This document shows, piece after piece, positions 1 through 39,823 of a stretch of DNA of 64,000 nucleotides (positions are counted from its first letter, which is position 1; each line of letters opens with the position of its first letter). The notes under the pieces were generated by a model. That model worked only from the letters and a program-made list of their open reading frames with translations. It was not told the DNA's origin and did not search any database. This DNA comes from a virus. The position numbers were made by a program, and so were the translations under genes. Location of the stretch: the IMG/VR virus record IMGVR_UViG_3300045988_168563, positions 1-64,000 of that record. One strand, 5' to 3'.

Positions 1-1004
1 AGGAGAGAAGAGACAACGCCCTTGACAACATCTGTAAGGACCCTCTCTTCCCTTCTCATCGCCCTACTCTCCTGGGCTCGTGCGGTAGCATCCACATTCT
101 GTCGGTAGCCAAGGACTGATGCGTCATGAAGCACTCTGACTCCCTTGTCTACCATGTTCTTGGCCTCCGATGCTATGAGGCTATAGATAGTAGAATCTAC
201 AACACCCATGGCGTTACGCTCAGCTACAGAGAGCATCCTGATCTCACCATTACCAGCTAAGCTATGAAGCACATCGATGATTGGCATCTTAGCCTTCATG
301 GCTTCGTTAACCATGTTTGTAGAGACATCGACGAACTCCTCTTTGATCCTGTCTACAGCGTCATCGCTAAGCCTCGTCTTGCCATCACCATTCTTGATTA
401 GCTCATTGAGGACGGCACCGGTATCGACACTTCCATCTGACTTACGGAAACCCTTGAAGCCTGATTGAATGATCCCAGCAACTCGCTCGATGTTCTTTTC
501 GAGATCGGTCCTATCCAGGGCATACCTCGCGCGCTTCTTGTAAACGTTCTCAAGGATACGAACGAGGATAGCCGAATTGAGGTCGTTGACCTTGTCTATG
601 GCATCCTGATTCAAAAACTCATAGGAGGTTTTCTCCAGTGCGTTCTTGATATAGTGTGGCACGTAAGACATGACAGCCTTATATCCTTCTGTCTCCTGGA
701 TAGGTCTACCCTTGGGATCCATCTTCCCAATCTTATCCAGCACCGCATCGACCTCCTCATTATTCTTGACAAGCTCCTGGAACTTGCGCTCAAGGATACG
801 GATCGTGCTCTTCTTAGTAAGCTGCTCATTAGTGAACTCGTACCCTTGTGTCATCTCGGTATAAGCAATAAGCGCCTGGACCTTCTCTACTTTGTCGGCC
901 AGGTGCTTGATTGGACTCATACCTTCTTGCCCTTCATACTCGGACTCGTTGATCAACTTCTTGATCTCCTCGTATGTCTCGGGGCTCAGTATTCTACAAT
1001 GCAT
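1..1004 (-). CDS. hypothetical protein, C-terminus cut by window edge (N-terminal ~334 aa present)
   Basis: Uninterrupted minus-strand frame from ATG at 1004 (MHCRILSPETYEEIKKLINESEYEG...) to position 1. It is missing from the ORF track because it has no stop in the window. The Leu-rich + ORF 465..1022 is its antisense shadow. Confidence 0.6.
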   Translation of the reverse strand, partial: MHCRILSPETYEEIKKLINESEYEGQEGMSPIKHLADKVEKVQALIAYTEMTQGYEFTNEQLTKKSTIRILERKFQELVKNNEEVDAVLDKIGKMDPKGRPIQETEGYKAVMSYVPHYIKNALEKTSYEFLNQDAIDKVNDLNSAILVRILENVYKKRARYALDRTDLEKNIERVAGIIQSGFKGFRKSDGSVDTGAVLNELIKNGDGKTRLSDDAVDRIKEEFVDVSTNMVNEAMKAKMPIIDVLHSLAGNGEIRMLSVAERNAMGVVDSTIYSLIASEAKNMVDKGVRVLHDASVLGYRQNVDATARAQESRAMRREERVLTDVVKGVVSSL

Positions 1005-21194: not shown

Positions 21195-21268
21195 TGGCTG
21201 GTGGGGGACTCCAACCCCCAACCTGAGGTTTAGGAAACCTCTGCTCTATGCTGTTGAGCTAACCAGCC
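21195..21268 (-). tRNA. tRNA-Arg (anticodon CCT, reads AGG)
   Basis: 74 nt: GGCTGGT-TA-GCTC-AACAGCATA-GAGC-A-GAGGT-TTCCTAA-ACCTC-AGGTT-GGGGG-TTGGAGT-CCCCC-ACCAGCC-A. All four stems are perfect. The D-loop lacks GG and the T-loop reads TTGGAGT, so the elbow is atypical. Confidence 0.8.
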
Positions 21269-34549: not shown

Positions 34550-34852
34550 TTACGCCTTGTAAAGGACGATAGTCTGGTGAGTCTGCTCGTGCGGTACTGG
34601 TCCGCAATAGACGGTGGCTCCCCATCCGATGGTCTTACCACGGACTACCTCTACAGGCTTCTCCGTGGTGAAGTCAAGACACATACGTGATGTATCCTGA
34701 TTATAATAGACGAGCTGACGCTTGATTCCAGCCTTGCGTACAAGGTCCAGGAAGTCGCGTAGCATCTGATTCCCAGCGGAAACGATATCAATCGCCTCAA
34801 TGACCGAAGTCACTGAGGGATTGAGTTCGTCCAAGATGACCATCTGGTTCAT
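34550..34852 (-). CDS. hypothetical protein
   Basis: ORF track. Confidence 0.5.
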   Translation of the reverse strand: MNQMVILDELNPSVTSVIEAIDIVSAGNQMLRDFLDLVRKAGIKRQLVYYNQDTSRMCLDFTTEKPVEVVRGKTIGWGATVYCGPVPHEQTHQTIVLYKA

Positions 34853-34862
34853 AGTCGTAAGG

Positions 34863-35360
34863 CTATAAGAAGTTCATCTTGTAGCGTGGGTCAGCCTCGT
34901 AGTTGCCGATGAACAGGTTGTACCCGGCAGGCTGATTGTCTACGATGCGCATCTGGAGGTTCACGTGGAACACCTGACCTGTCTGCTGCGTAAGGGCGAG
35001 TGCATCCTCGAAGACCTGAGGGCCTTCCTTGGTACCATTAACCCATACAGCGGTAGGCTTACCATCTACTCTGATGAAGGCCTGCTGGCGATCGCCATAC
35101 TGAGTCTTCATCACAAACGTACTGAGCACACCGAGCTTCTTGAGGTCAGCCATCTGCGTAAGCTCGATGGACTTAGTCGTAACCGTATAGGCGCGTGGGC
35201 GCTCTACTACGGTCTCAACAGCCTCCTCAAAAGGATTGACTGGAGTAGCTTCAGTAGCTTCAACGCCGTCTACGTGCATACCCTGAACTTCGGCGTTGTT
35301 AAGTTCAGTTGCGATGTTGGTCTGTGCAGCTTCAGCTGCGATCTTCGTCTTGCGTGCCAT
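34863..35360 (-). CDS. hypothetical protein (possible OB-fold-like C-terminal half)
   Basis: Start set at ATG 35360 (MARKTKIAAEAAQ...). The track ORF extends to 35588 only by reading Arg/Pro/Gly-rich translation of the G+C-rich leader. Confidence 0.5.
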   Translation of the reverse strand: MARKTKIAAEAAQTNIATELNNAEVQGMHVDGVEATEATPVNPFEEAVETVVERPRAYTVTTKSIELTQMADLKKLGVLSTFVMKTQYGDRQQAFIRVDGKPTAVWVNGTKEGPQVFEDALALTQQTGQVFHVNLQMRIVDNQPAGYNLFIGNYEADPRYKMNFL

Positions 35361-35563
35361 AATTGTATAACGCATTATAAGTGATGCTCTCTTCCCACCG
35401 TGGGTCGGGTAGCGGCGGTCCTTAGAGCGGACCATACTTGGTGAACCGGAGTCAACCGGCGGTACCTGCAGCTCCCTGCAGCCGGTAGAGACGTGGCGAT
35501 GCTTCGCACCGGCAATGTAGAGGCCGGGAGGATGGCGAAGGCGGAGCCACGGACGGCAGAAAG

Positions 35564-35584
35564 CCCCGACAAGGGATATCCCCC
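35564..35584. repeat. 21-mer CCCCGACAAGGGATATCCCCC, copy 1
   Basis: Identical to copy 2; contains the palindrome GGGATATCCC. Confidence 0.9.
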
Positions 35585-35673
35585 GCAAGCGGCAGGGCTA
35601 CCAACCGGAGGATACCATCCGGAGGTTGCCAGCCGGAGGGAATCCCAGCCAGGGCGCAGGCGTAAGCCCACAA

Positions 35674-35694
35674 CCCCGACAAGGGATATCCCCC
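35674..35694. repeat. 21-mer CCCCGACAAGGGATATCCCCC, copy 2
   Basis: Exact direct repeat 110 bp from copy 1. Confidence 0.9.
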
Positions 35695-35720
35695 GACGTT
35701 CGGCCGAAGGCCGCAGGGGA

Positions 35721-36302
35721 TTAGAAGATACGGCTGGCCTGACGGTAGAGGTACAGGCGGGCACACAGGAGAGGGTCGGAGATACCGACGTAGTGGCAGA
35801 CGGAGACGACAACATTCAGCGCTCTGGCTTCAGCTCTCGTTCCATAGTTGTCATCATTCCTCAGTCCGTCCAGGGCGATAGCACCATTGCGCAGGATGCT
35901 GTCCTTGCTGTGGTAAGGACCATTCTGGAAGATATGGGTCAGCCACAGAGCGCCATTCTCCTTCTTGCTTATGCGGAAGATGAGGTGTGCGATAGCACCA
36001 CCCATCAGGACATAGAAGTATGGAAGAGAGCTTGCTACCTTCCTCAGGAGACCATACTTGCGTACGCGATTGTCAAGGACGTCACGCAGGAGCGTAGCCT
36101 TCTTCTGGCTGGGCTGCGCCCACTTAATGATTAGACATAGGACGAACTGTAGGATGCGTGCTTTGCTCATCAGCTTAGCGATAGCTTCGTAAGCAAGGCG
36201 ATAGTTTACGACTGCGCTATCCTTGGTGCCGGCATTAGGAATGGCGGTCTTTGCTGCGTTGATGATAGCGGTGATCTCGTTGTTGACGTTGATAGTATTC
36301 AT
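35721..36302 (-). CDS. hypothetical protein
   Basis: ORF track. The last ~20 codons run into the G+C-rich element, so the true C-terminus is uncertain. Confidence 0.45.
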   Translation of the reverse strand: MNTINVNNEITAIINAAKTAIPNAGTKDSAVVNYRLAYEAIAKLMSKARILQFVLCLIIKWAQPSQKKATLLRDVLDNRVRKYGLLRKVASSLPYFYVLMGGAIAHLIFRISKKENGALWLTHIFQNGPYHSKDSILRNGAIALDGLRNDDNYGTRAEARALNVVVSVCHYVGISDPLLCARLYLYRQASRIF

Positions 36303-36378
36303 ATATGTAGGTGTTGTGCCGTTAGGCGGTTATTGTTAAGTATGGGGGAGGCTTTAGCCCTCCTCCCCCTTTAGGGCG

Positions 36379-36726
36379 TTAGAATGGGAGGTCGTCAGTC
36401 TTTCCAGCGAGGACCTCTTGGTATATGATGTGAGCCCGCTGGTCGCGGATAGCATCATCAATGAAGCTACGCAGAGAGCGTCGACGATCTCTCTCACCCT
36501 TAGCTGCGTCAAGGACGGTTAGGTAGTCTTCCTTCTCTGCGTACCGCTCCATAAACTCAGCCATTTCACGGTGAGCCTTAACGAGTTGCATAGCGAAGAT
36601 GACTTCTCCTTCCTCAGAGATTAGACATAGGTCAAGCGTAGAGTGCAGCTCATCGAGCATAGCTTCGTCTGAGAGTGCTTCACCGAATTGCTTGAGCGTT
36701 TCCTGTGGGATTCTATATGCGTTCAT
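36379..36726 (-). CDS. hypothetical protein ending ...GKTDDLPF (SSB-tip-like tail)
   Basis: ORF track; flanked by its own hairpins (36344-36369 downstream). Confidence 0.55.
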   Translation of the reverse strand: MNAYRIPQETLKQFGEALSDEAMLDELHSTLDLCLISEEGEVIFAMQLVKAHREMAEFMERYAEKEDYLTVLDAAKGERDRRRSLRSFIDDAIRDQRAHIIYQEVLAGKTDDLPF

Positions 36727-36797
36727 AATCGTGTTGTTATTATAGGGTTAGTATGGTAAAGCCACCTCCCCCGGTGTGGGGAAGGTGACTGCTGTTA

Positions 36798-37658
36798 TTA
36801 GAAGGGGAGACAGTCTGATTCGAAGAGGCCGGCGTGGAAGTTGTCATCAACTTCGAGGCGCTCCATCTCCTCGTAGTCCTCATCAGTCAGACGCTCACCA
36901 GTGTAACCGACCTTGTATTCACCGGTCTCTTCATCGAAGAACACCTCGAACTCATCACTGATGAAGGCCGACTCTCTCGCCATCTCCTCAGCGGCGATAG
37001 CCGCATTCTGAGTTAGCTCCATATCGAGGTCTAGCCAGTAATCCAGCTGAGCCATCCCACATAGCTTGCCGTAGAGAATACGATACTCTTCCTCAGTGGC
37101 AAACATACTAATGCCTGCCATAAGGTCTCTGTCTCTTGCTTCAGCACTGTCAAGGACGATCTTCTCGACCCATCCCATAGATTCCTTCTCATCAGTGTCA
37201 TAGTAGAGGCATTCCTCAACACGACTGAATGAGTAGGTGCGCTCAGCAAGCTCATCATAGCTGGATATATTAAGGTTAGACAATAGGGTTGACAATTCAC
37301 AGGTATGCTCCTCCTCAGGAACAGCATAGCCGATTTCACCACGCTCTTCGGCATCGACGAAAGTATCGTACTTCTGACTGTCGAAGGCTACAAGACCATC
37401 AAACAGCGCACGATACTCAATATCTGTGGCGTGAGCCTTGACGATATCAGCAAGGTAGTCAGCTATGCAACCTTCTGCACAGCGACCTACAGCACGCTTG
37501 ATATCATCAATATTACCATTGGTGCCATTATACTTCAGCCCATCGAGGACGATATTAGCCACAGGAGACCACAAAGCCATAGCAAGCTCAGCATAAGAAG
37601 AGCACCAAACGTTAGACAGAAGGACGGACGATTCACGGAGGGTCTTGATTGCTTCCAT
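36798..37658 (-). CDS. acidic hypothetical protein ending ...FESDCLPF (SSB-tip-like tail)
   Basis: ORF track; D/E-rich throughout; hairpin 36763-36787 downstream. Confidence 0.55.
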   Translation of the reverse strand: MEAIKTLRESSVLLSNVWCSSYAELAMALWSPVANIVLDGLKYNGTNGNIDDIKRAVGRCAEGCIADYLADIVKAHATDIEYRALFDGLVAFDSQKYDTFVDAEERGEIGYAVPEEEHTCELSTLLSNLNISSYDELAERTYSFSRVEECLYYDTDEKESMGWVEKIVLDSAEARDRDLMAGISMFATEEEYRILYGKLCGMAQLDYWLDLDMELTQNAAIAAEEMARESAFISDEFEVFFDEETGEYKVGYTGERLTDEDYEEMERLEVDDNFHAGLFESDCLPF

Positions 37659-37816
37659 TGTAGTAAGGTGTTAGGAAGTGAAACAATAAGGATGAACACC
37701 ACCCTACACAGGATGGCGTACGACAGATATAACAAGGCAACAACAGCTAAGTATAGCCATAGCATCACCACAAAACAACACAGCGGAGATAGACGAAAAG
37801 GTGGGAAGAGGAATAG

Positions 37817-37826
37817 CCCCCCCCCC
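37817..37826. repeat. C10 (G10 on minus strand) homopolymer in the loop of hairpin gggaaga..tcttccc
   Basis: Read directly: aatagCCCCCCCCCCacctc, about 160 nt upstream of ATG 37658. Confidence 0.9.
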
Positions 37827-37899
37827 ACCTCACGTCTTCCCATTGTAGCCGTCATCACAACAGCTATTCTGGGTGTTGTTGTCTTGTTCACTAGGATTG

Positions 37900-38225
37900 C
37901 CTAGCGCAGGGGTGTGTATTATCTCCTGAGGAGGGGAGAGTAGGTAATACACCCTTGATGTGGAGCTGGGTTACACCCCTTGCTGAGCTGTGCACTGGAC
38001 TCTGTGTCCTTGGTGCTTGTGACCTGGCCAGCGTCCTGCACTGGTGAGGTCTAGGGTGCGAGCTATGACGTGTGTCGCTCGCTATGCTCAGCGGTGGGGT
38101 ACCCACATCGTTGTGGTACCCATCGCTCCCTGACAAGGGATATTCCCCGCACCCGGGGGTACCAACACAGGAGCTGATTGCTGGAGGGGGTCCGAAGCGG
38201 GAGCCGTCAGCGCGAGTAAGTTCTG
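37900..38225. other. second G+C-rich structured non-coding block carrying a diverged third copy of the 21-mer module
   Basis: 38128-38148 is ccctgacaagggatattcccc. The next ~25 nt (gcacccgggggtaccaacacaggag) align with the sequence after copy 1 (gcaagcggcagggctaccaaccggagg). Confidence 0.4.
38128..38148. repeat. 21-mer module, diverged copy 3 (CCCTGACAAGGGATATTCCCC)
   Basis: 19/21 identity to copies 1 and 2, in the same orientation. Confidence 0.8.
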
Positions 38226-38304
38226 CTGTATCTAAAAATTTTTTAGGTCATTTTTTTTGTAGTCCTAAATCGGAGGTCATCAATATGATTGGTATTGGTA
38301 CTAT

Positions 38305-38487
38305 GGTTGAGGAAGGGATGGTGTATTCTGGTTGAGGAAGGGATAGTAGATGCACTTAGTGATCCTGAGTGTGTGCTGTGTAGGTGCCGGACTTAGCTGT
38401 GTGTTCGGTGTGGCTGAGGTGGGAATGGTGTGGGTATTTTGGTTGAGGAGGGTGTAGATCATCCTGGGTATTTTGGTTGAGGAGGAA
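38305..38487 (+). repeat. four direct repeats GGTTGAGGA(A/G)G(G/A) (38305, 38330, 38441, 38475), the last two inside a 20-nt repeat GGGTATTTTGGTTGAGGAGG
   Basis: Read directly from the sequence. Preceded by the A/T palindrome CTAAAAATTTTTTAG (38232-38246) and a T8 run. Confidence 0.85.
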
Positions 38488-38495
38488 GAAGTGTG

Positions 38496-38503
38496 TATCT
38501 TTG
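38496..38503 (+). promoter_or_regulatory. -7 box TATCTTTG (P1), first of the tandem array
   Basis: Exact TAnnTTTG. Confidence 0.5.
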
Positions 38504-38545
38504 GTGTGAGAAGTTTCGACATAACTGTTTGGTATTTATCGTAGG

Positions 38546-38596
38546 ATACGTGTTGCCCGTGATGGGTGGCACGTATTCGTTTTATGTGTACCTTTG
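38546..38596 (+). promoter_or_regulatory. array unit: hairpin 38546-38576 (atacgtg..cacgtat) plus -7 box TACCTTTG 38589-38596 (P2)
   Basis: Read directly; T run cgTTTTatg lies between the hairpin and the box. Confidence 0.55.
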
Positions 38597-38660
38597 TGTT
38601 GCTGGGTTTTGAGCTTTTTCCCAGCACATCATATTTCCATTGGTTTATAGTTTTACATGG

Positions 38661-38709
38661 TACGCGTTGTCTGAGAAGATAGCGCGTATCGCTTTTATGT
38701 ATATCTTTG
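38661..38709 (+). promoter_or_regulatory. array unit: hairpin 38661-38688 (tacgcg..cgcgta) plus TATCTTTG 38702-38709 (P3)
   Basis: Read directly. Confidence 0.55.
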
Positions 38710-38747
38710 CGGTAGGGGAGTCTTCCCCTCGTGTGTGCCATTGTTTG

Positions 38748-38802
38748 TATGCATCATCTCTATATGGGGTGGTGCATACTTCTTTGATATGTATTATCTT
38801 TG
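38748..38802 (+). promoter_or_regulatory. array unit: hairpin 38748-38778 (tatgca..tgcata) plus TATCTTTG 38795-38802 (P4)
   Basis: Read directly. Confidence 0.55.
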
Positions 38803-38846
38803 TGGCGATAGGTAATTAGCTTCATATTGATTGTTTAGTTAGGGTT

Positions 38847-38899
38847 ACATGCACTGCTCCTCGGGGTGGTGCATGTTCTCGTATAAAGGTGTATCTTTG
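38847..38899 (+). promoter_or_regulatory. array unit: hairpin 38847-38876 (acatgcac..gtgcatgt) plus TATCTTTG 38892-38899 (P5)
   Basis: Read directly. Confidence 0.55.
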
Positions 38900-38946
38900 C
38901 ACTGTTGAGTCTCCCATACTATTTAGGTTAGTTGTTAAACTGGGTC

Positions 38947-38991
38947 TGCGCATCACTCTCATGAGTGGTGCGCATATCTTTTGTACCTTTG
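38947..38991 (+). promoter_or_regulatory. array unit: hairpin 38947-38974 (tgcgcatcactc..gagtggtgcgca) plus TACCTTTG 38984-38991 (P6)
   Basis: Read directly. Confidence 0.55.
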
Positions 38992-39042
38992 TGTTGTGGA
39001 TATAATAGGTTAATTGGCTAATCAAGTGTAGCTTGATTTTGG

Positions 39043-39107
39043 TACGCACTGCCTGGGAAGGTGGTGCGTATTGCTTTTGGGGATTTGAGGAAAGGGTGGT
39101 ATCTTTG
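39043..39107 (+). promoter_or_regulatory. array unit: hairpin 39043-39070 (tacgcac..gtgcgta) plus TATCTTTG 39100-39107 (P7)
   Basis: Read directly. Confidence 0.55.
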
Positions 39108-39186
39108 CCTTGTAATAAATCTTATCGTTATTCTTGGGCTGTGAGGTTAGTCCCACAATTTCCATTTCAAATTTGTCTATCAGCTG

Positions 39187-39247
39187 TGCGCTACTCGGGA
39201 GAGTGGCGCATGGTGTTTTGGTAGGTTGGGGATTATATATACCTTTG
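39187..39247 (+). promoter_or_regulatory. array unit: hairpin 39187-39210 (tgcgc.actc..gagt.gcgca) plus TACCTTTG 39240-39247 (P8)
   Basis: Read directly. Confidence 0.55.
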
Positions 39248-39309
39248 CGGTGAAGGGTGGCGACCTTTCTGCATCGTATCTTATCTTTTATCTCTGCTCC
39301 TCGGGGCTT

Positions 39310-39385
39310 GGAGTGTGATCCAAAGGCTTGGGCCTGACTTTGTCGGGTGGCTGGCGCCGAGGTGGTTCGATTCCCCCGCACTCTA
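39310..39385 (+). ncRNA. tRNA-like element 1 (76 nt, non-canonical; possibly a decayed tRNA)
   Basis: 7-bp acceptor-like pairing ggagtgt/gcactct including two G-U pairs. T-arm ggtgg-TTCGATT-ccccc has one mismatch. No standard anticodon arm: the best loop is actttgt on a weak stem. Confidence 0.3.
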
Positions 39386-39388
39386 CTA

Positions 39389-39445
39389 CTGACTGGTGCT
39401 GTAGGCACGCGTGACGACGCTAGGGTTTGATTCCCTACGGTCAGG
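39389..39445 (+). ncRNA. tRNA-like element 2 (57 nt mini cloverleaf lacking a normal anticodon loop)
   Basis: Acceptor ctgactg/cggtcag (7 bp, one G-U). T-arm taggg-TTTGATT-cccta. Two 4-bp mini-hairpins lie between them. Confidence 0.3.
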
Positions 39446-39727
39446 TCTTATCACTGCTCTCTCCTCATGAGGAAGACAGCAACACATTGCGCTTGTAGGG
39501 CCCTATCCCCGAAGGCGATGGTCTGCGACTGATAGGTCGGTCAAGCGGATAGTGGTGTGAGATGGCGGCGACTCAGTGATCCGTTCGGTACACTTTATTA
39601 CTCACAAATGGGGGACACCAAAGACCTGCCTAAGATCCCCTGCCAATACGAAGGTATATCAGGCTACCTTCGAGTAGAGGTCGGACGATGACACCGAGAC
39701 CTCGCAATGACGCTCACCTTTCCATAG

Positions 39728-39799
39728 GGTGGGCGTCGCCTTTTATACGCCACCACAATGTCCTCTTTCCTCAGGCCATATAGTTATGCCTTACCTTTG
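39728..39799 (+). promoter_or_regulatory. hairpin 39728-39754 (ggtgg.cgt..acgccacc) plus TACCTTTG 39792-39799 (P9), the late-operon promoter
   Basis: The -7 box lies 25 nt upstream of ATG 39824. No further TAnnTTTG was noticed upstream of the later late-gene starts that I checked. Confidence 0.6.
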
Positions 39800-39823
39800 C
39801 GGTATAACATAGTACGTACATAT

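Follow-up and report, generated by a model that had tools for sequence, protein, structure and literature searches.

The window analysed here, a 64,000-nucleotide stretch of viral DNA, belongs to a phage of the Crassvirales, with PHROG family matches for the terminase, portal and major capsid protein, and its capsid protein shows 44% identity to crAss-like phages. No viruses of the human gut are more abundant than the crAss-like phages, whose early genes are transcribed by an injected polymerase of the two-barrel family. The window begins with the N-terminal 334 codons of a giant gene (1..1004, on the minus strand, as are all of the modules, leaders and hairpins described below), which encodes a protein of ~2,620 aa and runs past the window start. 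This protein is a homolog of the crAss virion RNA polymerase (vRNAP), since it possesses the conserved DFDVD motif and gave tblastn matches to 'putative RNA polymerase' with E values down to 1e-42; searches of the PDB with its sequence and profile found nothing significant, and PHROGs returned no matches for it and its neighbours. Further along, two G+C-rich blocks are located among small genes, and the kilobase at 35-36 kb is the G+C peak of the whole sequence (0.571 vs ~0.48). A blastn search of positions 34800-38300 against 50,697 phage records revealed no match, and Pfam and PHROGs gave none for the 8 proteins neighbouring the blocks. However, the same blocks were present in ~25 relatives showing 73-98% protein identity, in which the genes lying between the blocks form a shuffled, highly mosaic set.

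A first, sequence-only reading of this DNA had placed both G+C-rich stretches on the 5' side of minus-strand genes. This is the case for block 1, which lies directly before an ORFan gene of 165 aa (34863..35360) whose homologs were found in clade members only, with 73-95% identity. Between block 2 and the gene at 36798-37658, in contrast, lie ~240 nt containing a terminator-like hairpin and its U-run (37803..37825), and in several relatives unrelated sequence occupies the place of this gene. The same reading had described the stretches as free of ORFs, and the only frames spanning the blocks are indeed overlapping and Arg/Pro-rich. Relatives have indels there whose lengths cannot be divided by three, one case being the 17-nt gap in L008/L009; therefore, these frames are not conserved genes.

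When the folding of the blocks was compared with that of shuffled sequences, the minus sense was the more structured strand in both block 1 (z = -3.6, vs -1.5 for the plus strand) and block 2 (z = -5.6 vs -3.2). The block 1 core (35385..35563) is a near-invariant structured leader with six predicted hairpin or helix elements, and only ~25 nt separate its end from the start codon (ATG) of the 165-aa gene. Its mean identity to the relatives is 95.6%, vs 89-91% for the flanking coding sequences, and 98.4% of its pair cells are paired across these genomes; 3 pairs are compensatory, and G-U pairs are conserved. The block 2 core (37885..38127) is predicted to form a multi-branch fold with a closing helix, GGAGC/GCUCC, and a terminal hairpin (~37889-37909) that shows compensatory changes; in the relatives, 94.4% of the pair cells are paired and 4 pairs have changed on both sides. 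The covariation score of these folds was matched by 0 of 500 shuffles, and slid controls were only 33-45% paired. The high similarity of the sequences keeps the covariation sparse, and the conserved G-U pairs are compatible with the minus-sense strand only. The generic features of structured non-coding RNA, namely folding beyond that of shuffles, compensatory changes, strand-specific G-U pairs and the lack of a conserved ORF, were all found in the blocks. These results provide modest evidence that the blocks are conserved non-coding elements with conserved RNA folds, oriented in the sense direction of what looks like an early operon. The idea of structured leaders downstream of early promoters, raised when the sequence was first read together with a proposal to fold them with their homologs, gains to that extent from the retained pairs, and a promoter-like region does lie upstream.

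One near-perfect stem singled out in the sequence-only reading (ggctggcaacc...ggttggtagcc) falls in the region between two repeat copies (35598..35645), where a 14-nt unit, CCUCCGGNUGGYAN, is repeated in tandem. The window has 3 of these units and the relatives have 3, 2 or 1, and because this number varies, the stem is not conserved. A comparison with Rfam, also proposed at that stage, identified no family on the blocks: at the gathering threshold of Rfam 15, tRNA-Arg (21195-21268) alone passed in the whole window, and nothing credible appeared on the blocks when E values up to 10 were permitted over 35200-39800. The sole permissive overlap was PrrB_RsmZ at 37797-37927, with 16.3 bits vs a gathering score of 44.

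The blocks share a 21-mer, CCCCGACAAGGGATATCCCCC, whose occurrence as two exact copies 110 bp apart (35564-35584 and 35674-35694) and one copy matching at 19 of 21 positions (38128-38148), all in the minus-strand reading, agrees with what had first been noticed; 3 matches were reached in 0 of 100 shuffles. The similarity of the third copy to the one at 35564, which had been seen to continue beyond the 21-mer, extends over 29 nt. In the minus sense, module A (35674..35694), the first block 1 copy, is preceded by a GGCC-UUCG-GGCC hairpin (35700-35713), and module B (35564..35584), the second, by a CCCUGC-CGCUU-GCGGGG hairpin; module B lies directly 5' of the block 1 core. Module C (38128..38148) reads GGGGAAUAUCCC-UUGUC-AGGG and lies directly 5' of the block 2 core. 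Module B was found in all of the relatives examined, while contig 3300006321_000014 has neither module A nor the gene at 35721-36302. No further copy was detected in the ~60-75 kb retrieved per genome.

Alignment of the relatives revealed that each module consists of a 9-11 nt segment that is specific to the genome, followed by a conserved mini-hairpin, CCC-UKYC-GGG, with a G/C stem of 3-4 bp and a loop of 4-5 nt in every copy. At least 9 types of this segment occur in ~25 genomes, and the type of copies A, B and C is always identical within one genome, despite the shuffling of genes between the blocks. That the variable segment is genome-specific, matched among all copies and co-varying with the vRNAP had been missed in the sequence-only reading. 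Its proposal of a palindromic protein site (GGGATATCCC) holds for this module type only, as most of the others are not palindromes (AUGUUAUUCCC, AACCAACCCC, GGAAUCAUCCC). In the retrieved loci of all genomes, no complementary partner for the variable segment was found. Internal pairing with its own flanks was rejected, as the segment changes while the flanks are constant, and mimicry of the 16S rRNA 3' end or helix 45, suggested by types 1-3, was dropped since types 4-8 are incompatible with it. More distant crAss-like loci (31-52% identity in a 189-aa marker protein) carried no module; the repeats at these loci proved to be tRNA T-arms or, in paralogous genes, RBS-plus-start-codon regions.

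A short repeat within non-coding DNA might be a MITE-like mobile element, as had been suggested, or might have come from a host, for instance as a CRISPR-repeat mimic. However, a search of 596 Gb of prokaryotic genomes from 185,579 species returned no match to the block 1 core and only 3 single matches to the module, in unrelated Legionella, Nitrospira and archaeal MAGs, where ~4 would be expected by chance (an estimate). In viral and metagenome collections, the block 1 core was confined to this clade and always occupied the same two loci, and neither terminal inverted repeats nor target duplications accompany it. An 18-mer of this core also occurs in 5 unrelated viral contigs, where inspection pointed to chance matches within coding regions. 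With three copies per genome at fixed orthologous positions, a dispersed mobile repeat is refuted to the depth of the collections, and an origin of this kind is exceedingly improbable.

Another explanation for the agreement among copies is that the variable segment has no specific function, that gene conversion homogenises the three copies, and that the blocks are recombination linkers between exchangeable gene cassettes, as the mosaic gene content between them might suggest. Sequence does move between copies, since in class II genomes copy B also has the upstream hairpin of copy A (GCGGCCUUCGGCCGA), and at least 13 related contigs terminate at the window-equivalent of 35.0-39.3 kb (tabulated from contig ranges). 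Nevertheless, module C keeps its own flanks but shares its 9-11 nt type with A and B, which are 2.5 kb away, and such short and precise tracts in 9 types are implausible without selection. Gene conversion would also leave unexplained both the compensatory changes in the folds and the co-variation with the vRNAP described below. We consider this scenario very unlikely.

To compare module types with the proteins encoded by the same phages, we scanned ORFs of at least 80 aa in 11 genomes representing 8 independent lineages and 5 types; types T1b, T7 and T8 were outside this comparison, and a homolog search with the type-specific vRNAP segment returned nothing. Across 45 gene families (424 windows of 80 residues, ~75 kb), perfect sorting by module type was found for vRNAP residues ~676-870 alone. 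In the genome-wide control, the only concordant windows among the 424 were those at vRNAP 680-880, and none of the other 44 ortholog groups, which take in every gene up to 10 kb from the blocks, sorted by type. The segment is encoded beyond the window and is N-terminal to residues ~1074-2589, over which most of the other crAss polymerases listed can be aligned. Between T5 and T6, identity is 56% within ~676-870 and 92-94% in its flanks. In the T1 genome 155552, the segment groups with other T1 sequences (94-95%), while residues 1-690 are 98% identical to those of a T2 genome. In addition, the relatedness of the vRNAP alleles parallels that of the modules. Only 6 of 3,360 labelings of the 8 lineages were concordant; with the many scanned windows allowed for, the co-variation is suggestive but not decisive. 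As in a promoter set, the sites are near-identical within a genome and their specific bases co-vary with the genome's own polymerase, in the 11 genomes and 5 types compared. That the module type and one vRNAP segment vary together among the phages suggests that the module is the recognition site of this polymerase.

The module could instead be the site of some other fast-evolving phage factor, such as an N/nut-like antiterminator, a regulator or an iteron-binding replication initiator near the GC-skew switch, in which case lineage structure would have produced the link to the vRNAP by accident. Pairs such as nut/N, operator/repressor and iteron/initiator typically have matched sites that are private to a genome, the blocks are located at the cumulative GC-skew minimum beside iteron-like repeats (38295-38485), and the scan covered ORFs of at least 80 aa in all but ~15-25 kb of each genome. 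However, among the ORFs that were covered only the vRNAP sorts by type, and no N-like protein does. The spacings of the modules (110 nt and 2.45 kb) are also unlike those of iteron arrays. Moreover, the vRNAP signal is limited to a single segment with a phylogeny at odds with that of its flanks, which lineage structure alone does not predict. A role for another factor is therefore improbable.

Candidate transcription signals surround the modules. A type-independent promoter-like unit (38210..38260), consisting of an A/T tract followed by AAYTTAYNNNCGC, is located upstream of block 2 and is triplicated in contig 3300045988_167888. It is followed by the block 2 5' leader (38149..38205; GCUCCCGCUUCGG...), which includes a hairpin just upstream of module C and falls into two sequence classes that track the module class; conservation and a predicted fold extend over the ~60-75 nt that precede module C. 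Terminator-like hairpins occur downstream of block 2 and also after the genes that follow, so that the putative leader has a promoter-like unit upstream and a terminator-like hairpin downstream. The Bacteroidetes -7 box (TAnnTTTG) was not found on the minus strand at the operon head, including the promoter-like unit, while 9 instances were present on the opposite strand.

We tentatively favour, at a little under an even chance, the explanation that the three modules are cognate recognition elements of the injected vRNAP heading the early operon, most likely early promoters. In the minus sense, a stable upstream hairpin would come first, followed by the 9-11 nt specificity segment, which vRNAP residues ~676-870 would read, and then by the conserved CCCUUGUC or mini-hairpin element. 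The vRNAP would bind the module, presumably at the DNA (promoter) level, and its G-run would serve as the transcription start. Two G+C-rich, tightly folded leader RNAs would arise in this way, the block 2 core from module C and the block 1 core from module B, and would precede small early ORFan genes. The closing helix of the block 2 core begins right after module C, which fits an RNA with its 5' end there, and the lack of a -7 box on the minus strand was counted in favour of a vRNAP promoter. Against a promoter, the mini-hairpin alternates between U-A and U-G (TCAGGG vs TCGGGG), retaining its pairing on the sense strand only, and no comparable module exists at the distant crAss-like loci. The location of the type-specific vRNAP segment outside the widely alignable part of the polymerase also counts against it.

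The sense-specific pairing would be better accommodated if the module acted as RNA. Transcription would then start at ~38210-38260, and the module in the nascent RNA, a single-stranded segment between two hairpins, would bind the transcribing vRNAP through residues ~676-870, making it resistant to the downstream terminator-like hairpins; modules A and B would re-load it 2.5 kb further on. Such an element, comparable to put, would act directly on RNA polymerase, and RNA binding would explain the co-variation equally well. The conserved and predicted-folded leader upstream of module C and the type-independent promoter-like unit before it fit an upstream-started transcript containing the module and favour this alternative, as do the terminator-like hairpins and the conserved G-U pairs in the cores. 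On the other hand, polymerase-specific promoters are common among phage-encoded RNA polymerases, whereas put-type RNA elements are rare, and no Rfam family of any kind was matched over the blocks. An RNA-level element is rather unlikely, yet it is the main rival of the promoter explanation.

Under the promoter explanation, the module would more generally be the early promoter of a crAss-like vRNAP, with a swappable 9-11 nt code and a conserved hairpin or initiation element read by an exchangeable segment of ~200 residues. Close relatives would keep private early specificities and switch them by segment swap, and the promoters would launch abundant structured early RNAs. We hold this wider proposal with somewhat less confidence. 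If true, it would explain how near-identical co-circulating phages avoid cross-activation. In phage phi14:2, the early genes are transcribed by the vRNAP and no early promoter motif was found (bioRxiv 10.1101/2020.03.07.982082); our literature search found no later report of a common early motif. A candidate site of 20-40 nt, nine natural specificity variants and a mapped candidate vRNAP segment make the question directly testable in vitro.

Among known systems, lambda nut (boxA + boxB) and N also combine phage-specific RNA sites in early leaders, with a conserved and a specific part, and a matched phage-specific factor. The arrangement differs, because in the modules conservation resides in the hairpin and specificity in the single-stranded stretch. 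A loop of the block 1 core, CGCUCUAA (GGUCCGCUCUAAGGACC), agrees with boxA at 7 of 8 positions, a likeness that we estimate to be no greater than chance would give. The put elements of HK022 mediate processive antitermination without a protein factor by acting on the host polymerase. Like the module, put is a cis element of an early-operon leader that occurs in several copies, with terminators downstream, but no similarity in sequence or structure was detected, and put is not known to have a genome-specific variable segment.

Two early intergenic lncRNAs of phi14:2 (g004-g006) are transcribed from the earliest time point at a very high level (bioRxiv 10.1101/2020.03.07.982082), and if the promoter explanation is true, the two folded leader RNAs are candidates for their counterparts. 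In either phage, two long stretches of non-coding DNA lie among the genes that are, or here appear to be, the earliest. The likeness is positional only: the phi14:2 regions are A+T-rich (17-36% G+C), have no comparable repeated module and show no homology to the blocks.

The vRNAP of phage N4 uses three hairpin promoters near the left end of the genome (PMC13492108). As proposed here, a giant injected virion polymerase transcribes the early genes in N4 from three sites (P1-P3) near the head of the early region, each combining a short hairpin with sequence-specific bases (PMC13492108). Both the crAss and the N4 vRNAP are poor on double-stranded DNA and active on single-stranded DNA. However, the N4 polymerase is T7-like and has a single subunit, and that of the crAss-like phages is a member of the two-barrel (DFDxD) family. 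No sequence similarity was found, and binding and initiation at the module are our proposal. The stem here is 3-4 bp with a loop of 4-5 nt, vs 5 bp and a 3-nt loop in N4 P2, the sole N4 promoter compared. As for an extruded template-strand hairpin of the N4 type, every copy has a G/C stem, but the alternation in the mini-hairpin preserves pairing on the sense strand only.

In T7, T3, SP6 and K11, the promoters of one genome share a genome-specific stretch beside a conserved initiation-proximal part, and this stretch co-varies with a specificity segment of the polymerase. The modules have a similar layout, with a variable part of 9-11 nt, the conserved element and then GGG. They differ from the T7 group in that the polymerase belongs to another family and that three sites per genome lie within G+C-rich folded leaders. 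In addition, specificity here switches among phages that are otherwise ~90% identical, apparently through the swap of a polymerase segment of ~200 residues.

Judging from its protein matches, the window is from a Crassvirales phage; PHROG matches included the terminase, portal and major capsid protein families, and the capsid protein was 44% identical to those of crAss-like phages. Minus-strand genes extend to ~38 kb, and from 39,758 onwards the genes are on the plus strand. Block 2 (37885-38205, minus strand) stands at the head of a minus-strand operon of small ORFan genes, for which nothing was found in Pfam or PHROGs, and block 1 (35385-35720, minus strand) lies 2.5 kb farther down the same operon, directly 5' of a 165-aa ORFan gene. 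Terminator-like hairpins were located 3' of block 2 (37825-37803, minus strand) and 3' of the operon's second gene pair (34544-34521, minus strand). Block 2 is preceded by an A/T tract together with a conserved AAYTTAYNNNCGC unit. The relative closest to the window (contig 3300045988_167888, L003:11829-12070) carries this promoter-like unit, consisting of a T-run, AACTTAY..CGC and CTCCCGCTTCGG, three times in tandem. At the operon head, no Bacteroidetes -7 box (TAnnTTTG) was found on the minus strand, and nine were found on the opposite strand, from 38,496 to 39,792.

Several features were observed in the divergent non-coding region beyond block 2. At least eight Bacteroidetes-type -7 boxes of the form TAYCTTTG occur at 38540-39800 (plus strand) in units with a period of about 100-110 nt, most with a G+C hairpin and T-run, terminator-like, just before them; the arrangement looks as though numerous short transcripts, or decoy promoters, were encoded in front of the structural genes. 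Two adjoining tRNA-like structures (39309-39385 and 39389-39444, plus strand) gave Rfam scores under the gathering threshold, 29.7 bits as tRNA-Sec-like and 34.1 bits (E = 3e-4) as mascRNA-like. Neither was called by ARAGORN, and a resembling sequence, T-arm included, was readable in one relative (L049). Four iteron-like copies of a TGGGTATTTTGGTTGAGGAGG-like 21-mer lie at 38295-38485. As the strand switch and the minimum of the cumulative GC skew are both next to these repeats, the stretch may be an origin region.

The sequence-only reading had described a 21-mer, CCCCGACAAGGGATATCCCCC, in G+C-rich blocks without ORFs, and this description was borne out. Exact copies lie at 35674 (module A) and 35564 (module B) in block 1, and a third, with 2 mismatches, at 38128 (module C) in block 2. 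Three such matches were reached in 0 of 100 shuffles, and the likeness reaches ~29 nt. G+C content peaks over the whole sequence in the kilobase that contains block 1 (0.571 vs ~0.48). Both blocks are crossed only by overlapping Arg/Pro-rich frames, and indels in relatives are not multiples of three, which rules out long ORFs. We also noted 14-nt tandem units, CCUCCGGNUGGYAN, at 35598-35645 (minus strand), numbering 3, 2 or 1 among relatives, and recurrent CCUCC motifs, resembling the anti-Shine-Dalgarno core, across both blocks.

In minus sense, both blocks folded more stably than shuffled sequences, with z = -3.6 on the minus and -1.5 on the plus strand for block 1, and -5.6 and -3.2 for block 2. 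The folded cores, 3' of modules B and C, showed mean identities to relatives of 95.6% in block 1 (adjoining CDS, 89-91%) and 89% in block 2, on par with coding sequence. Among 23 sequences for the block 1 core and 10 for the block 2 core, 98.4% and 94.4% of pair cells were paired, with 3 and 4 pairs changed on both sides; the covariation score was reached in 0 of 500 shuffles for either core, and slid-partner controls lowered the paired fraction to 33-45%. On the opposite strand, several of the invariant G-U pairs would turn into C·A mismatches, indicating that the folded molecule is the minus-sense strand, most simply RNA. Since the sequences are so similar, covariation is sparse and the structural evidence moderate. 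Of the proposed structured RNA, folding and preserved pairing held up at that strength. An Rfam search of the blocks returned no matching family. We regard the blocks as conserved, folded, non-coding elements. An invariant hairpin of the block 1 core, GGUCC-GCUCUAA-GGACC (35430-35446, minus strand), has a loop reading CGCUCUAA, which shares 7 of 8 positions with the boxA consensus CGCUCUUA, within chance expectation by our estimate.

Pattern scans and protein-anchored look-ups yielded ~25 related genomes, each roughly 87-93 kb long; a DNA-level search of 50,697 deposited phage records gave zero matches. Among the genomes of 185,579 species, the block 1 core had no match and the module three, all in unrelated MAGs, with ~4 expected by chance on our estimate. 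To that depth, this excludes the suggested MITE-like repeat and any other repeat of mobile or host origin. Between the blocks (35721-37658 and its equivalents in the fetched loci L001-L099) lie hypervariable gene cassettes: several relatives have unrelated genes in place of the 286-aa gene, and presence of the 193-aa and 115-aa genes varies. At least 13 related contigs, tabulated from locus ranges, end within the equivalent of 35.0-39.3 kb, which suggests assembly-breaking strain-level variability or physical genome ends.

Each module copy comprises, in minus sense, a stable hairpin whose form varies with context, a variable segment of 9-11 nt and a conserved mini-hairpin, CCC(U)-UGYC-(R)GGG. 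This segment is genome-specific, with 0-2 differences among copies A, B and C of one genome. The variable segments define the types T1 (the window's; GGRAUAUCCC), T1b (GGAUUAYCCC), T2 (RAAUCAKCCC), T3 (GGAUCAYUCC), T4 (AUGUUAUUCCC), T5 (AACCAASCCC), T6 (UUAUAASCCC), T7 (AUAGRGACC) and T8 (AACUAUMCCC). As the other segments differ, the palindrome GGGATATCCC, once proposed as a protein site, is peculiar to T1. In the sequence retrieved from each genome (60-75 kb), no copies beyond A, B and C were found. Copy A is dispensable; one genome lacks both it and the 193-aa gene. In that relative (L004:1400-1520), 761 nt corresponding to 35626-36387 are absent; the junction coincides with ACCTCC microhomology, and the 115-aa protein encoded upstream has an altered C-terminus. 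Block 1 and block 2 types match in every genome despite heavy shuffling of the genes between them, which argues for selection on matching.

No complementary sequence or neighbouring protein was found to track the types. A gene of 2,613-2,627 aa, which starts at 1004, runs off the window start and is seen whole in relatives, encodes a conserved DFDVD motif and matches the 'putative RNA polymerase' of crAss-like phages (E-values down to 1e-42); by homology, its product is the virion RNA polymerase (vRNAP). Alleles of this gene, compared for five module types, parallel module relatedness: T1/T2 genomes share 87-97% identity, T4, T5 and T6 each have a separate allele (78-88% between them), and the two classes share 71-73%. 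In a sliding-window test along vRNAP, only residues ~676-870 sorted perfectly by type. Identity within this segment is 94-95% among T1 genomes, 93% between the two T2 genomes and 86-90% for T1 vs T2; T4, T5 and T6 are 48-58% identical to all others. The flanks conflict with this grouping: T1 genome 155552 shares 98% identity with a T2 genome over residues 1-690, and on both sides of the segment T5 and T6 share 92-94%. When 8 independent lineages are counted, concordance arises in 6 of 3,360 labelings, effectively 1 in 560. Across 45 ortholog groups (424 windows of 80 residues), a control that took in ORFs of 80 aa or more on all but ~15-25 kb of each genome, only four windows were concordant, all in vRNAP (680 to 880). 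In the vRNAP of relatives (L071:10881-18758), residues 1091-1183 and 1380-1477 are also hypervariable, at about 50-55% identity between classes, but show no sorting by module type. Neutral homogenisation of the copies does not fit the vRNAP signal well and seems very improbable; that the module is the site of another co-evolving factor is somewhat less improbable but still doubtful, given the same poor fit.

The simplest reading is that the module would be what this vRNAP recognises. We tentatively favour the reading that the modules are early promoters of vRNAP, which would launch the folded leaders. In the block 2 core, the closing helix starts directly after module C, which fits such a promoter. 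The main rival, a put-like element acting at the RNA level, is rather unlikely, though it draws on a leader 5' of module C that is conserved and predicted to fold, a type-independent promoter-like unit there, terminator-like hairpins downstream, and mini-hairpin pairing preserved on the sense strand only. For a module recognised by the phage's own polymerase, there are precedents. In the T7 group, phage-encoded polymerases and promoters co-vary. Close to the left end of its genome, N4 has three hairpin promoters that its injected vRNAP uses (PMC13492108). In the crAss-like phage phi14:2, early genes are transcribed by a vRNAP that prefers single-stranded templates and whose promoter motif was not identified in that study, and two early intergenic RNAs rank among the most abundant transcripts (bioRxiv 10.1101/2020.03.07.982082).
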